Source: Eledone cirrhosa
Taxonomy: Eukaryota
NCBI GenBank assembly: GCA_964016885.1
Contig: OZ024746.1
Span: 8,928,001 to 8,992,000, forward strand
DNA length: 64,000 bases
Reading direction: 5' to 3'
Shown here: in pieces, positions 5,432 through 64,000 of the stretch
Layout: every line of letters begins with the position of its first letter
How positions within the stretch are numbered: the stretch's first letter is position 1
Translations under genes and position numbers: made by a program
Notes under the pieces: generated by a model
Database searches by the model: none
Told to the model about the DNA's origin: nothing
Seen by the model: the letters and a program-made list of their open reading frames with translations, nothing else

Positions 5432-5912
5432 GGAGAATAGGATTGGCTGTGTAGTTGCTAGTTAAGGTAGCTTAAAATGGAGTGAGAATAAGAAGAATAA
5501 GAAGAAAGGGCGGGTCCTCATTAGTTGTCTACTGAGGGCCTCTAGCATTCCTTTTCTCACTTACACTTGCTGGGGTTAGACGTGTCTTTTCGCTCCCTCA
5601 CACGCTCTTGAACTTAAGTTTTCTTATCGTTGTGGTCTTGGATTTCCTTACCTTATGTTGCTCCCACATTGCTCAGTTTGTTGTTTTTTTCGCTGTTTTT
5701 TCGCTGTTTTCTCTTTTCTTCCCCCTCTCCCTTCTATTTTCCTTCCCTCCCTCCTCCATTTTCCCAATAACTTTCCCAGTTATTGAACGCTCTGGGCGGT
5801 AGATATATTGTATTTAAAGAGTAGAAATATCCGAGACCCCCAGTAGACAACTGATGAGGACCCCCCCCCCGTCGTTCTTGCTTTCTTCTTATTCTCACTA
5901 CATTTTAAGCTA
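5432..5912. mobile_element. Inverted-repeat element between TA tracts (probable PLE-derived fold-back)
   Basis: tagcttaaaatggagtgagaataagaag...gggtcctcattagttgtctactg (from 5468) is the reverse complement of cagtagacaactgatgaggaccc...cttcttattctcactacattttaagcta (to 5912); (TA)n on both sides. Confidence 0.6.
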
Positions 5913-6115
5913 TATATATATATATATATAATTATTGTTATTATTATCAATTTTTCATTTAATCAATTATTCATTTATACAAGAAAGTTCGGTGTGTTAG
6001 TATGATAATTCCATAAGACGCTATTGTTATGCATAATTATCATACACACATATATATATGTATATATGATATAGATTATATATATATATATATATATATA
6101 TATATATATATATAT

Positions 6116-6410
6116 TAGAAAAGGGAAGTGAGGTTCTATACAAAACAGTAAATATAGAGAAAAGATGAAGTTGGAAATAGCACGGGAGATATATTTAAGG
6201 GTTTGTTTTTTCTTTTTTGATTGGTCATTATGAACATTATTAAAAAGATAATGTTATTCAAAAAAGAGTGGGACAATGTTTTTTTAAATTTTTATTTTAT
6301 TTTTTATTTTATTTATTTTATATTTTTTTATAAAGTATATAAAGTATATGAGAAAATTACCGGTTTCGATGTATTAAGATCCAGCTTGTCAAATTCAGTG
6401 AAAACAGTTA
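6116..6410 (-). mobile_element. Family J mini-element with hammerhead-like motif; second copy at 54322-54556 (+)
   Basis: Minus strand reads aat-TTGACAA-gctggatcttaatacatc-GAAA-ccgg-TA-att. It shares atacatcgaaaccggtaa and the terminal ttccaact..tttctata..ttttgtatagaa..cccttttc block with the 54.3-54.56 kb copy. Confidence 0.55.
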
Positions 6411-6497
6411 ATTAAAAAGAGTTGGTAGGAGTAAAGAAAGGTTTAAAATTAAAATTAAAATCGAATGTTTGAGTAAAATGTCTTTAGTATTACTTAA

Positions 6498-6686
6498 GGG
6501 CAGTGGGTTGGCAGTATCGGTAGAGGGTCGGATGCCGTGCTTTGTAGTATAGAGTTACGGCCCTTTATGGTCTGAGTTCAAATCCCGCCGAGGTTAACTT
6601 TGCCTTTCATCCTTACGGGGTCGATAAAATAGAGTACCAGTAATGCACTAGGGTAATTGCTGGCCTTGTGCCAAAAGTAGAAACAA
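6498..6686 (+). mobile_element. tRNA-derived SINE (Meta/MESC-type central domain), full length
   Basis: A box-like ttggcagtatcgg, B box gagttcaaatcc, central aactttgcctttcatccttacggggtcgataaaat..agtaccag, 3' ggccttgtgccaaaagtagaaac; about 12 copies in the window. Confidence 0.9.
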
Positions 6687-6974
6687 GTATTACTTATAGT
6701 CAATCTTCGTTTTCGTATTAAACTCTTCCTTCAAATTTATCTCCGAAAAATAGAGTGTGTGCACATTCCATATTCCGCATATTTGCAGCAAATAGATATT
6801 ATGTGTTTATAAGTAAATATACACGTTTATATAAATAGTAATTTACATACTAAATACACACTCATTTACATACAAAAACACACGTAAAGATACGTAAATA
6901 TGGATACACTTATACCAAAATAAATGACAGGCAAAATTTCTTGATAGCAATTTGAGAGATATACATACATACGT

Positions 6975-7122
6975 TCAGACGACTTCTCATATGATTTTCT
7001 TTGAATGAAACAGTTCTAGTCTTGTAAAAGTCACTTCAATATTAAATTTGTTGTATACACACAACTAATGTAGTGAGTACCTTACTTACTGCGGTTATCC
7101 CCGATTGAACCCGAAACTCACA
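6975..7122 (+). mobile_element. Family H mini-element (hammerhead 3' half); related copies at 8330-8482 (-), 54790-54905 (-), 56590-56635 (-)
   Basis: gaatGAAAcagttctagTCttgta...gagtaccttactt.ctg.ggtta...gatt.aacccgaa matches the reverse complement of 54790-54905. Confidence 0.6.
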
Positions 7123-7569
7123 TATTTATATAGGTGGTGCATTTATATGCATGTATATACATATTGGATGATATGCTAGAGTGACATGGAGAAAGACTGT
7201 ATCAGATTCCTAACGCCTGGTACTATATCACATCTAACTTAGAAGCTACATGATCTGATGAACATATTATAGCTGGAATATTTTCTAGCTTTAAAATAAC
7301 TACTCCACAAATATTTCAACATACTTCATCTTGCGATCAATACAAGTAAACACCATCGAGTATCAAATTATTTCGAAATAGTTATTTTGTTTTATTGATA
7401 GTTAGAATCTCCTAAAGCGAAATCAATCCTTTAATTCGGCTATTCCTTTTCAACGTAATCTGGACTGATCCGATTTAAGGTTGGTACATTATATACTTAT
7501 ATACATAAATACATACATATACAGTATATATATATATATATATATATATATATATATATATATATATAC

Positions 7570-61760: not shown

Positions 61761-62482
61761 ATGATGATTGCTTATTTTAAGATTCACTTCTTTAAACATT
61801 TTCAAATGTATACACTTCCGGTTAGCGTTTGTTATATCATAACACTTATTACATCGCTTACATTCAAATATTTGAATAGTTATGCAGTTTATATATAATA
61901 TCGTCTTTTTTAAATGTATCATGGATTACTTTACTTACATAAGACTGTGTAACACATTCTCTCTTCAATTTCTGTGCATATATTTGCATATAATATAAAT
62001 ATGCACACTACACATGCTAACAGAAAACCACCCGAAGGGGTGGTTTTTTCTGCTAGTATCAATAAAAAGGGGAATCCTTTAAGGGCTCTCGTTATCTTCC
62101 TTACATTTTTGCCATGTCTATACAAGGAAACGATAAACCAAAACTAGAAACTAACTCCACTGAAACATTATATCTAAATAACAATACAACACAAACAGGT
62201 CACAATTCCAAAAACAACACGTAAAAGAAAACCACACTATGGCAAGTACTCCGCAAGACATAACAAATAAATAAGCCAAAATGAAAGGCAACTATAGCTA
62301 AAATACTCCGGACTAAAAGCAAAAACAGGTATATATATCTATAGGTATATATATCTATAGGTATGTATATCTATAGGTACGTTTCCCTCTTCAGATGATT
62401 CTCTCGTACTATTTATCAGTTCAGCTTATTTAATTCCATTTATTATATCAACAAGTTGATTTGAGGTTTTGCCTTAAAATAA

Positions 62483-62667
62483 TTGTTTCTACTATAGGCA
62501 CAAGGCCAGCTATTACCCAGTGCATTACTGGTACTTTATTTTATCGACCCCGTAAGGATGAAAGGCAAAGTCAACCTCGGCGGATTTGAACTCAGATCCT
62601 AAAGGGACGTAACTATGCTGGAAAGCATGGCGTCCGACCCTCTACTGATACTGCCAATCCATCCCCA
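62483..62667 (-). mobile_element. tRNA-derived SINE with 15-bp TSD ttgccttaaaataat
   Basis: TSD at 62469-62483 and 62668-62682. Confidence 0.92.
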
Positions 62668-62848
62668 TTGCCTTAAAATAATATTACAAAGCTTATTTAG
62701 AAACACCAAATTCTTATTGGATATTAAAGGGACACGAAAGAGTGTTTGTTGCCATGCCTACGTAACAACTAAAATATATGTTGGCAGATTTACCCCAAGT
62801 GTTGATCACAATTATTTTCTTGTCTGCCATTTTTATCCTTCCAAATAA

Positions 62849-63070
62849 TGGTTTCTAATTTAAGCACAAGGCCACCAATTTTAGGGGAGGGAGGGGAAAA
62901 TGTCGTTTAAATCGACCTCTGTACGTGACTAGTACTTTATTTTATCAACCCCGTAAGGATGAAAGGCAAAGCTAAACTCGGCGGAATTTGTAGATAGAAC
63001 GTAAAGGGCCGTAACTCTCTGCTGTAAAGCATGTTGTCCGACGCTCTACCGATTCTGCCAATCCAACGAC
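62849..63070 (-). mobile_element. SINE, longer subfamily
   Basis: ggtttctaatttaagcacaaggcca.caattt...tactttattttatcaaccccgtaaggatgaaaggcaaag...ctaccgattctgccaatcc. Confidence 0.85.
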
Positions 63071-63694
63071 CTTATCTTTCCAAATAATGATTATAGAACA
63101 AAGATAACATTTTTGTTTCCCTGATTTATTTATTTCACTCATATTTCTCGTCTCTATCAAATGACTTAGTACCTGCATAATAAAAAATGGTCAGAACTAG
63201 AGAAAGTCGACATCAAACGGTCCCTCATCTTCGTATGGATTGGTCAACAATTATATATATTAATATCCTATTCTACTTTATTAATATATTCTCTACTTTA
63301 TTACAATAAAGAATGTTATACACAAAGAGTAAATGTCATATTTGTTTCAAGAGCGACTACAAAATTATAAATAGAAAAAACAAGCCTTCTCAAACCTTGA
63401 TTAATCACGTGATGTTTTAATATTACTTTCAGTAATATTAATCGTACTCACATGATGTTGTTGATATCATGAAATCATTTCAAGAATAAAACACATGACA
63501 AATCTTCGAGAGTCACACACTTCGGTTAGAGAAAAAAAACTATCAGGAAAGCCAAATAATCTTCTTTTATAACATTATCTCTAATTGTTGGTATATATAT
63601 ATATATATACATACATACCCCCCCCCCCATATATATATATATAAATATAATATGGAAAACGAAGAATCAGAGATGCATCGGAACACAATTTATT

Positions 63695-63787
63695 ACGTAT
63701 TACAATTGTTTCTCCGACGAACAGCTCGAGGTACGATCTGTTTGTGGATGGAACCTGACTCTGGATTCGCAAGTTCCTCAGATACGT
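63695..63787 (-). ncRNA. Type I hammerhead ribozyme with ~60-nt helix II domain (family K)
   Basis: Minus strand: acgtat-CTGAGGA-[~60 nt]-GAAA-caattg-TA-atacgt; perfect 6-bp helix I and palindromic helix III. Confidence 0.72.
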
Positions 63788-64000
63788 CTAGTGACTTCGA
63801 AAGAGGATTTCGAAAGAGGATTTGCTTCGAAACTAAACGTATGTGAGGAACTTGCGAATCTAGAGTGAGGTTCAATATATATACAGTATATATATATACA
63901 GTATATATATATAATATATATATATATATATATATATATATATATATATATATATATACAAATATAAATTTAGCGAGAATCGTATTTCGGCTATTGGAAA

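Follow-up and report, generated by a model that had tools for sequence, protein, structure and literature searches.

Short islands lying between (TA)n tracts in the genome of Eledone cirrhosa are very probably the 3′ ends, shortened at 5′ and in many cases inverted head to head, of some 13 families of Penelope-like elements (PLEs) with a minimal type I hammerhead motif, likely written into (TA)n by the elements' own GIY-YIG/reverse transcriptase (RT) enzymes. TA flanks, links to RT/GIY-YIG frames, two discrete 3′ ends per family, and a single tail per inverted pair were all observed directly. The pattern has already been published (Cervera 2014; Craig 2021) and is ordinary for specialists; its density here is unusually high. 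Its value lies in scale and testability, as a large natural sample of the PLE insertion reaction.

The DNA examined (here, the window) was 64,000 nt long (GCA_964016885.1, contig OZ024746.1, positions 8,928,001 to 8,992,000, forward strand). Motif and arm densities for the window were computed on the 49.5 kb outside the satellite. An unbiased arm set was taken from the window plus 20 neighbouring and 47 scattered 10-kb stretches. The repeat families named by an earlier sequence-only reading were recovered by self-BLAST. Not every family is unrelated to the others: C and I share 72 to 76% over ~120 nt, and F and G have a motif in common. The features are listed below (coordinates, strand, description; a dot where no single strand applies).

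544..702, +: Hydra-type PLE reverse transcriptase fragment (57% identity to family H parent protein, E 6e-11)
6116..6400, -: family J 3′ end; complete U3-A8 hammerhead, CCGG, predicted cut after 6358
6975..7132, +: family H 3′ end and tail; hammerhead decayed
7567..8022,.: family A head-to-head pair, - arm tailed, + arm short; complete hammerheads, predicted cuts 7708 (-) and 7965 (+)
8336..8480, -: family H remnant without intact motif
14736..14933, +: family C 3′ end and tail; complete U3-A8 hammerhead, predicted cut 14805
14978..15279,.: family D head-to-head pair; both arms hold the hammerhead 3′ half only
15883..16010,.: family B short pair; motif 3′ half and tail
16757..16994,.: family E head-to-head pair; 3′ halves
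17072..17206, +: family A, short end; complete hammerhead, predicted cut 17152
20323..20607, -: family F 3′ end; complete motif, one core change, predicted cut 20417
22744..22962,.: family B head-to-head pair; 3′ halves
23554..23793,.: family A pair; - arm complete hammerhead, predicted cut 23610
23870..24098, -: family G 3′ end; core deleted
24160..24340,.: family B-like diverged pair; 3′ half
24453..24675, +: family B pLTR piece; complete U3-A8 hammerhead, helix III hairpin, predicted cut 24655
24755..25191,.: family C pair; complete hammerheads, predicted cuts 24835 (-) and 25024 (+)
25264..25952,.: family I pair; + arm long and tailed, GCAA replacing GAAA, cut site 25788
26031..26232, -: family L 3′ end; complete hammerhead, TGCGCA, predicted cut 26070
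26466..27042, -: family N, ~545-nt unit without RT-like frame, 1.06 tandem units, short end; predicted cut 26645
27335..27442, +: family N inverted arm running into its tail; a family A copy interrupts
27443..27670, +: family A and tail; complete hammerhead, predicted cut 27527
28261..29334, -: family M, C-terminal 176 aa (Zn linker, GIY-YIG) and pLTR; predicted cut 28491
29376..29568,.: family B head-to-head pair; junction within helix II
29589..29822,.: family E head-to-head pair, second subfamily; 3′ halves
29877..30238,.: family C pair; complete hammerheads, predicted cuts 30019 (-) and 30158 (+)
48042..48203, -: family A 3′ half and tail
49287..49481,.: family B head-to-head pair; 3′ halves
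53673..53805, +: family G; complete hammerhead, predicted cut 53703
54322..54556, +: family J 3′ end; complete motif, weak helix I, predicted cut 54363
54778..54911, -: family H and tail; truncation inside core, cut site 54876
55939..56133,.: family B head-to-head pair; 3′ halves
56258..56345,.: family B insertion, tail only, no hammerhead
57544..57980,.: family A pair, older subfamily; - arm complete motif, predicted cut 57604
58902..59302, +: family M pLTR and tail; hammerhead, predicted cut 59020
59599..59913,.: family K pair; + arm complete motif, changed core
63644..63876,.: family K-like pair; - arm canonical core, 6-bp helix I, predicted cut 63701

Parent elements

Walking upstream linked 12 of the 13 families to an RT/GIY-YIG frame or its remains (six Hydra-type, six Neptune/Nematis-type). 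Of the two options in the sequence-only reading, pLTR remnants of PLEs with (TA)n as their target is the right one. The type I hammerhead is located in the pLTR, as in EN+ PLEs. For family B the parent is a 731-aa Hydra-type RT/GIY-YIG frame at locus L033, laid out as inverted pLTR with tail, pLTR, frame, pLTR, and (TA)n; partial-tandem pLTRs with an inverted 5′-truncated copy and optional tail were found at L033, L158, L162, and L163. The family C parent is tandem (period, ~4.7 kb) with matches to RVT_1 (E 1.4e-6, slightly below the curated threshold) and to GIY-YIG (E 6.5e-6), and its frame matched no solved structure. Family M, all 150 of whose scored matches are at 99% identity, derives from a Neptune/Nematis-type PLE with a 1,217-aa frame in L163 and frames of up to 1,218 aa in a tandem array. 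In families A (traced through sampled genomic stretches) and L, the frame lies within the long arm of an inverted pair. Families D, H, K, and G were each traced to a parent RT/GIY-YIG frame, and family I has one upstream in 10 of 20 loci. RT remains, decayed, were found in three of four extended loci of family F, and at one locus the family J pLTR continues into a frame start, also as decayed remains. Family E is linked through a relative only, with the same tail, which precedes a Hydra-type frame (L354). An apparent common upstream sequence in family E was rejected as a parent trace and is another repeat. Family E without a direct parent, and the decayed state of the F and J links, count against the PLE explanation. 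The sequence-only reading had also pointed to PLE proteins like those at 0.5 and 29 kb as possible movers of the whole set; the 29-kb frame is that of family M only, and the 0.5-kb piece is the Hydra-type RT fragment.

YxDD and YIG motifs occur within a single frame in B, H, and M; in the other families, RT/GIY-YIG were recognized by similarity in broken frames. Pfam gave no match for the B frame, the M frame, or two window fragments, so B and M were assigned by motifs. Homologues of the B protein were unnamed or hypothetical among the 120 matches listed. Near-identical copies exist for B, I, and M, and B and M have long unbroken frames, which suggests them as candidates for studying in vitro how (TA)n is targeted.

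Families A, B, D, H, K, and L resemble the Hydra clade in linker and cysteine motifs, C-terminal GIY-YIG, hammerhead, and (TA)n insertion (PMC8557442), the last reported for hammerhead-bearing Hydra elements in 2021 (Craig et al., PMC8557442). All six carry a CxCx5C linker; CxxC..E and CxH occur in A, D, H, K, and L and can also be made out in the B frame, and none has a cysteine pair within the GIY-YIG core (no CCHH). DKT replaces DKG in B, H, and K, the three for which this region was recovered (not A, D, or L), and no RWK motif was found in the 731-aa B frame, whose protein start is undefined. Hydra elements are usually, not strictly, <3 kb (PMC8557442), whereas those here are longer (B, 3.6 kb; H and K, longer still), with 3′ untranslated parts of 1.3 to 2.3 kb and very high copy numbers. 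A search of the PMC8557442 supplement for four cephalopod names gave Naiad rows at each of the three places covered, out of five. Families C, I, G, and M are like Neptune/Nematis in their Cx2-5CxxC linker and CCHH-type core. F and J, where this region was not recoverable, are probably of the same type by resemblance to G and C. Motifs and similarity suggest this grouping as one joint class, in which Neptune is not told from Nematis. Family M has DKS and a long Asn-rich insert resembling those of rotifer PLEs (PMC3846280).

Hammerhead motifs

A strict type I descriptor gave nine complete motifs in these 49.5 kb, where 30 shuffles preserving dinucleotides and simple repeats averaged 0.1 (range, 0 to 1); a 470-kb genome sample gave 12, versus 0 to 1 in shuffles. 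Rough extrapolation to 3.0 Gb gives about 77,000 strict motifs; the genome holds >20 recurring motif types. Every one of 34 sites had been said to carry the motif or its 3′ half, which failed at B 56257 (tail only) and H 8330, where there is no motif. Motifs were complete (CUGANGA or UUGANAA plus GAAA) at 16 sites (five A, B 24453, three C, G 53673, two J, K 63650, L 26062, and two M), complete with a changed core at three (F 20323, I 25271, and K 59670), and reduced to the 3′ half or decayed at 13 (A 48051, six B, D, two E, G 23875, H 6975, and H 54790). All seven helix III palindromes quoted earlier were found, and the predicted cuts after 7965, 24655, and 30158 would fall at the positions already given for them.

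Covariation, which the hammerhead claim had called for, was seen in 194 distinct copies chosen by core letters alone: helix I was 84% paired (57% partner-shuffled, 42 to 48% slid) and helix II 81% (47% shuffled), values attained in 0 of 500 shuffles, although kinship among copies inflates the test. Within it, helix II did not covary in families H and L. These controls contradict a chance origin of the motifs in AT-rich repeats, a reading we rejected as having next to no probability, even though five of six motifs folded alone were no stabler than their own shuffles (one was). An Rfam scan of the window returned no hammerhead family among the best 150 of 341 matches; these were microRNA families plus one viral UTR family, none at gathering score.

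Many dissimilar minimal-hammerhead families derived from truncated PLEs, opposite-strand pairs 100 to 700 bp apart, and a U3-A8 core were described in 2014 (PMC4209133). The motifs here agree in their heterogeneous families, mostly single motifs, opposite-strand pairs, U3-A8, extra base after A9, and palindromic helix III. They differ in density (~77,000 by extrapolation versus 2,000 to 9,000 in the genomes listed there), in a helix III hairpin in B, H, E, and N, and in the changed cores of D, K, and I.

Insertion signature

Across all families of the unbiased set, 178 of 221 arms terminate in at least (TA)4 (background, 7.8%). Median arm length is 131 nt, with 192 of 221 at ≤250 nt and seven at >1 kb. 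The window holds about four times as many arms as the genome sample (44 per 49.5 kb versus 108 per 470 kb, with the window's own families as queries), and the latter figure extrapolates roughly to ~0.7 million arms genome-wide. Each family has two discrete 3′ ends (e.g., B at +20/+97 and A at +58/+144 from the cut), and 5′ ends vary from tens of bases to >1 kb. Only 1 of 198 arms starts ≤4 nt from the cut; family H was left out of cut-relative counts because its cut anchor was misplaced. In one count, 49 of 50 head-to-head pairs had exactly one tailed and one short arm. What the literature has noted qualitatively thereby becomes a limit on the ways in which PLE inversions can arise. A literature search without most subscription papers and Repbase/Dfam found no counted one-tail rule, no paper on cephalopod PLE hammerheads, and nothing on retrozyme insertion signatures.

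We propose that the GIY-YIG enzyme would nick (TA)n and that reverse transcription would begin at two internal RNA sites, one per target strand, giving the tailed and the short arm. Synthesis would usually end before ~250 nt, and the shortened cDNA pair would be joined 5′ end to 5′ end; given this early stop and joining, most copies would be dead on arrival, and many have no CUGANGA half. Dimeric hammerheads would act on the tandem precursor RNA, but their cleavage is likely not an insertion step. In vitro work on an anole PLE showed that RT starts at two sites, that both strands of the target are extended, and that cleavage can be dispensed with (PMC11167929).

Inversions might instead arise if a single cDNA stalled in the hammerhead stem, folded on itself, and was copied back to the short end, a possibility that we rate as rather unlikely and that would alter only how inversions form, not what the elements are. 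Such self-priming has been proposed for PLE inversions (PMC3846280), and family B offers it several footholds: junctions cluster 12 to 17 nt upstream of GAAA in helix II or loop II (spacers of 24 to 35 nt in 11 of 17), several joints are palindromic or microhomologous, and, as a tentative point in comparing one template with two, arms differ somewhat less within pairs (mean, 2.8 differences) than between them (4.4; six pairs). The clustering is compatible with snap-back priming as well. However, in long pairs the tail is on the short arm at some loci and on the long arm at others (L031 versus L032), long arms hold kilobases absent from the partner, and both target strands were extended in vitro (PMC11167929).

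The listed islands might instead stand alone as non-autonomous ribozyme mini-elements, either retrozymes or SINE-like units, that replicate as short RNAs; non-autonomous ribozyme elements were the other option offered by the sequence-only reading. The very short copies, the clustered B junctions, family E without a frame of its own, and the true ORF-less tandem units elsewhere in the genome speak for the mini-element view, yet it fails for 12 of 13 families, which run upstream into their own RT/GIY-YIG frames. Their 5′ ends are spread continuously, the CUGANGA half is missing from the usual B hairpin, and among 421 motif hits no short TA-free tandems of families A to M were found, TA-free same-strand motif repeats <1.5 kb apart coming solely from 310-nt and 592-nt units. 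We consider this option improbable. Inverted arms and TA flanks would also suit TA-inserted MITEs or foldback DNA transposons whose termini are inverted repeats, but the unequal tails of 49 of 50 pairs, the variable 5′ lengths, and the many single-arm copies do not, and the linked RT/GIY-YIG frames contradict this identity, which we rejected as barely credible.

Tandem repeats without reading frames

Non-autonomous ribozyme repeats do occur, and the window's example, family N (26466 to 27442), was missing from the earlier list. It is a 545-nt ORF-less tandem repeat whose type I hammerhead has a long helix III; it had no match in the 47 scattered stretches. The longest stop-free stretches in the N, 310-nt, and 592-nt units are 108, 59, and 86 aa, respectively, and no unit matched a PLE protein. 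All three nevertheless share the PLE insertion signature of (TA)n flanks, two discrete 3′ ends, and head-to-head inversion, which supports retrozyme mobilization by PLEs, as far as their DNA can tell; N-like repeats likely borrow PLE machinery. The 310-nt and 592-nt units carry at least two complete motifs consecutively. Family N was seen as 1.0 to 1.5 units only, at four loci, and so falls short of the two complete motifs set as a criterion in the 2026 preprint by Li, Clavereau, and Pollet (10.64898/2026.07.22.740005). As described in the accessible parts of two papers (PMC7229834; 10.64898/2026.07.22.740005), non-LTR retrozymes are likewise tandem, without an RT-like frame, and with one type I hammerhead per unit, and their PLE link comes from co-occurrence, common motifs, and pLTR homology. 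By comparison with those parts, the units here, known from DNA alone, appear to differ in carrying the insertion signature itself, and two of the three exceed the usual 300 nt. Repeats of this kind, retrozyme-like but with PLE ends, are relevant to the question of which enzyme mobilizes retrozymes in animals.

In the young, recently amplified families D, K, and I, the catalytic core is changed by apparently fixed substitutions, and the three helices and the palindrome appear to be kept. A joint reading, in which the genome holds hundreds of thousands of PLE insertion records, the N, 310-nt, and 592-nt retrozymes are PLE-mobilized, and D, K, and I have changed cores, stands at about even chances; if true, it would be direct genomic evidence that PLE enzymes mobilize animal retrozymes. 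Should the D, K, and I ribozymes be dead, the hammerhead fold would be kept as a protein-binding or dimerizing signal and self-cleavage would be dispensable. With their altered cores, these families offer natural mutants for asking what role the hammerhead has in a PLE.

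Hammerhead motifs and window layout

The window (source assembly, 3.0 Gb) contains a satellite block at 31689-46235 (~31.7-46.2 kb; a 28-nt unit ×347, a GTA repeat, a 21-nt unit ×110 and a CTA repeat), outside which (TA)n tracts alternate with short islands. The island families listed in the sequence-only reading were recovered by self-BLAST of the window, in which many islands proved to be inverted pairs. Compared with the scattered sample, TA-tract density is ~2-fold and arm density (an arm is one 3′ end copy) ~4-fold. A strict type I hammerhead descriptor matched 9 times in 49.5 kb of the window, for which 30 shuffles averaged 0.1. 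Neighbouring DNA (200 kb) gave 13 matches (0-2 in shuffles) and the 47 scattered stretches of 10 kb gave 12 (0-1 in shuffles), so motif frequency exceeds that of shuffled controls. That reading had also placed a motif or its 3′ half at each listed site; among 34 sites, 16 carry a complete motif, 3 a complete motif with a changed core and 13 a 3′ half or decayed form, and 2 lack any motif. The cut sites and helix III palindromes that it quoted are correct.

Helix pairing was assessed in 194 distinct copies, selected by core letters alone; helix I was 84% paired and helix II 81%, figures inflated by relatedness of the copies, and both exceeded all 500 partner shuffles. Compensatory changes were seen in helix I of families H and N and helix II of A; in the same test, helix II covariation was absent from H and L. 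Folded singly, five of six motifs were no more stable than shuffles. Over all fetched loci, 31 recurring motif clusters of >20 distinct types were found (helix III palindromes include CTAG, CTACGTAG, GTAC and CGCG), which indicates that the genome holds many more Penelope-like element (PLE) families than the window.

Parent elements

Every listed family was walked upstream in search of an RT/GIY-YIG parent (L numbers denote loci from the rest of the genome, G000). For 12 of 13 families the walks reached such frames or their remains, which identifies them as ends of coding PLEs. No parent of E was found in 20 loci or 5 extensions; its link goes through a tail-sharing relative that stands ahead of a Hydra-type frame.

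In the B parent (L033), a tailed, inverted pseudo-LTR (pLTR) is followed by a 731-aa frame between two further pLTRs, the last of which ends in (TA)n; the frame carries the DKT, CxCx5C, CxxC and CxH marks of the Hydra clade and has 791 homologues out of 8000 scored candidates. In A and L, a Hydra-type frame starts at the inversion joint, within the long arm (L095, L098), and D, H and K have such frames 1.8-2.3 kb upstream, within sequence that their loci share. The K parent frame has a ~200-aa insert between RT thumb and linker (L250:4530-6438, L251:3437-5942).

Tandem pLTRs of C, ~4.7 kb apart, enclose a frame with RVT_1 and GIY-YIG matches; I has an upstream frame in 10 of 20 loci, ~52% identical to C, and the J pLTR continues into a decayed C-like frame at one locus. 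G has RT and Zn-linker/GIY-YIG sequence ending ~300 nt upstream of the query, and RT remains in three of four extended F loci are 58-63% identical to the G parent. Family M (the pLTR at 28264/58911) has a 1217-aa frame (150/150 scored matches at 99%) and forms a tandem array of 4.15-kb period, several units of which keep a 1218-aa open frame (G000:C28, ~42.00-42.06 Mb; L149-L156, L162). Ahead of the RT, its protein (L163:1679-5329, minus strand) carries a long Asn-rich insert resembling those described from rotifer PLEs.

The 0.5-kb piece is a fragment of a Hydra-type RT. Directly upstream of it, 414-510 is related (81%) to 30502-30597; both adjoin TA tracts, and a relative in L089 is an inverted pair.

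Insertion anatomy

An unbiased set (the window, 20 neighbouring and 47 scattered stretches) contained 221 arms with a median length of 131 nt. TA targeting was confirmed, with 178/221 arms ending in (TA)4 or more against a background of 7.8%. Each of eight families has two discrete 3′ ends, giving tailed and short arms; 49 of their 50 head-to-head pairs combined a tailed arm with a short one, the other pair had two tails, and none had two short arms. This unreplicated count covers two-armed pairs that no TA tract interrupts. Only 1 of 198 arms (H excluded) started within 4 nt of the cut. In 11 of 17 measured B joints, 24-35 nt separate the two GAAA copies; the joint falls inside helix II, and such B copies therefore lack the CUGANGA half.

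Directly observed here are the coding parents, flanking TA repeats, a pair of discrete 3′ ends, the coupling of one tail to each inverted pair, and the near-absence of starts at the cut. The protein of an anole PLE (PMC11167929) cleaves AT-rich DNA, extends the two strands and starts at two internal RNA sites, which define the tail; insertion was normal with a mutated hammerhead. In Eledone, each RNA site would prime one arm, the two arms on opposite strands of the target, and the cDNAs, truncated, would then join head to head. Snap-back of a single cDNA (PMC3846280) is a less probable rival, for the inversion step only, and a comparison of arms under one template versus two did not separate it from two primed templates.

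The observation is real and well supported, and the islands add further examples of an already known pattern. Cervera and de la Pena 2014 (PMC4209133) describe heterogeneous minimal-hammerhead families from truncated PLEs, with opposite-strand pairs and a U3-A8 core, as here, and weak dimer cleavage; Craig et al. 2021 (PMC8557442) describe hammerhead-bearing Hydra elements inserted in (TA)n, as here, often with a tail at one end only. An Octopus vulgaris annotation (PMC13282606) reports 31 recently active Penelope-like families, its accessible portion making no mention of ribozymes. The value of the present set rests on its density, the one-tail count, retrozyme-like repeats with PLE ends, and altered cores.

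Tandem units and altered cores

Tandem hammerhead units without an ORF
26466-27042, minus strand: family N, ~545-nt unit; inverted arm at 27335-27442
L159:6783-9142 and L049: 310-nt unit; L159 holds ~4.8 + ~2.8 units head to head
L101:1-2431, L017, L238, L233, L342: 592-nt unit; ends at 181-187 and 353

The N unit gave no PLE protein match. It occurs as 1.0-1.5 tandem units at four loci (82-90% identity). One of its ends is short and one tailed, both lying in (TA)n; its hammerhead motif has an extended helix III, and helix I shows a compensatory change. In the window (26466-27442) it lies head to head about a palindromic TA tract (27043-27334), its tail interrupted by a family A copy. About 2000 contigs per run match N (three runs of one sample, which reflects neither copy number nor independent support), and they show loose, TA-rich ends where the tail lies, besides four joints running from unit end back to start. 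The 310- and 592-nt units (copies 97-100% identical) are likewise flanked by TA, with two 3′ ends and copies inverted head to head; in L159 the former runs out into TA at unit positions 213 and 192. Tandem hammerhead retrozymes and a proposed PLE link are already described in PMC7229834 and 10.64898/2026.07.22.740005.

Window positions 5079-5156 (island 5072-5345) match the 310-nt unit at 76%; 57136-57400 shares its related loci with that island and has a possible CUGAUGA...GAAA motif. L108 holds a similar short tandem with inversion.

D, K and I have altered cores, and copies within each family are close to one another, in sets that a best-first search biases toward close copies. The D core is CCGUCGA in 16 of 19 distinct copies (matches, 96-99%), one older copy being canonical; in K, position 4 is C in 20 of 23 (94-98%); and I has GCAA instead of GAAA in 8 of 8 (99-100%). 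Canonical-core relatives of these motifs occur in L121 and at window 63650. Among core changes, A13C is damaging. U4C reduces in vitro activity but still permits viroid infectivity (PMC3088659), so D and K, though each has a second change, need not be dead. We give an even chance to a joint reading in which PLE enzymes insert retrozyme-like units while D, K and I keep the hammerhead fold, cleavage being dispensable if their cores are dead.

Other repeats

Copies (80-90% identical) of an abundant ~200-nt repeat, which we take to be SINE-like
6484-6700
9372-9588
9852-10069
12881-13108
17571-17767
47608-47838
58745-58927
62475-62686
62921-63092

Unlisted TA-associated families, several as inverted pairs, occupy 48240-48444, 12440-12667, 5432-5910, 48681-48751, 30257-30390 and 58078-58700, and a local tandem duplication of 173 nt lies at 61047-61392.
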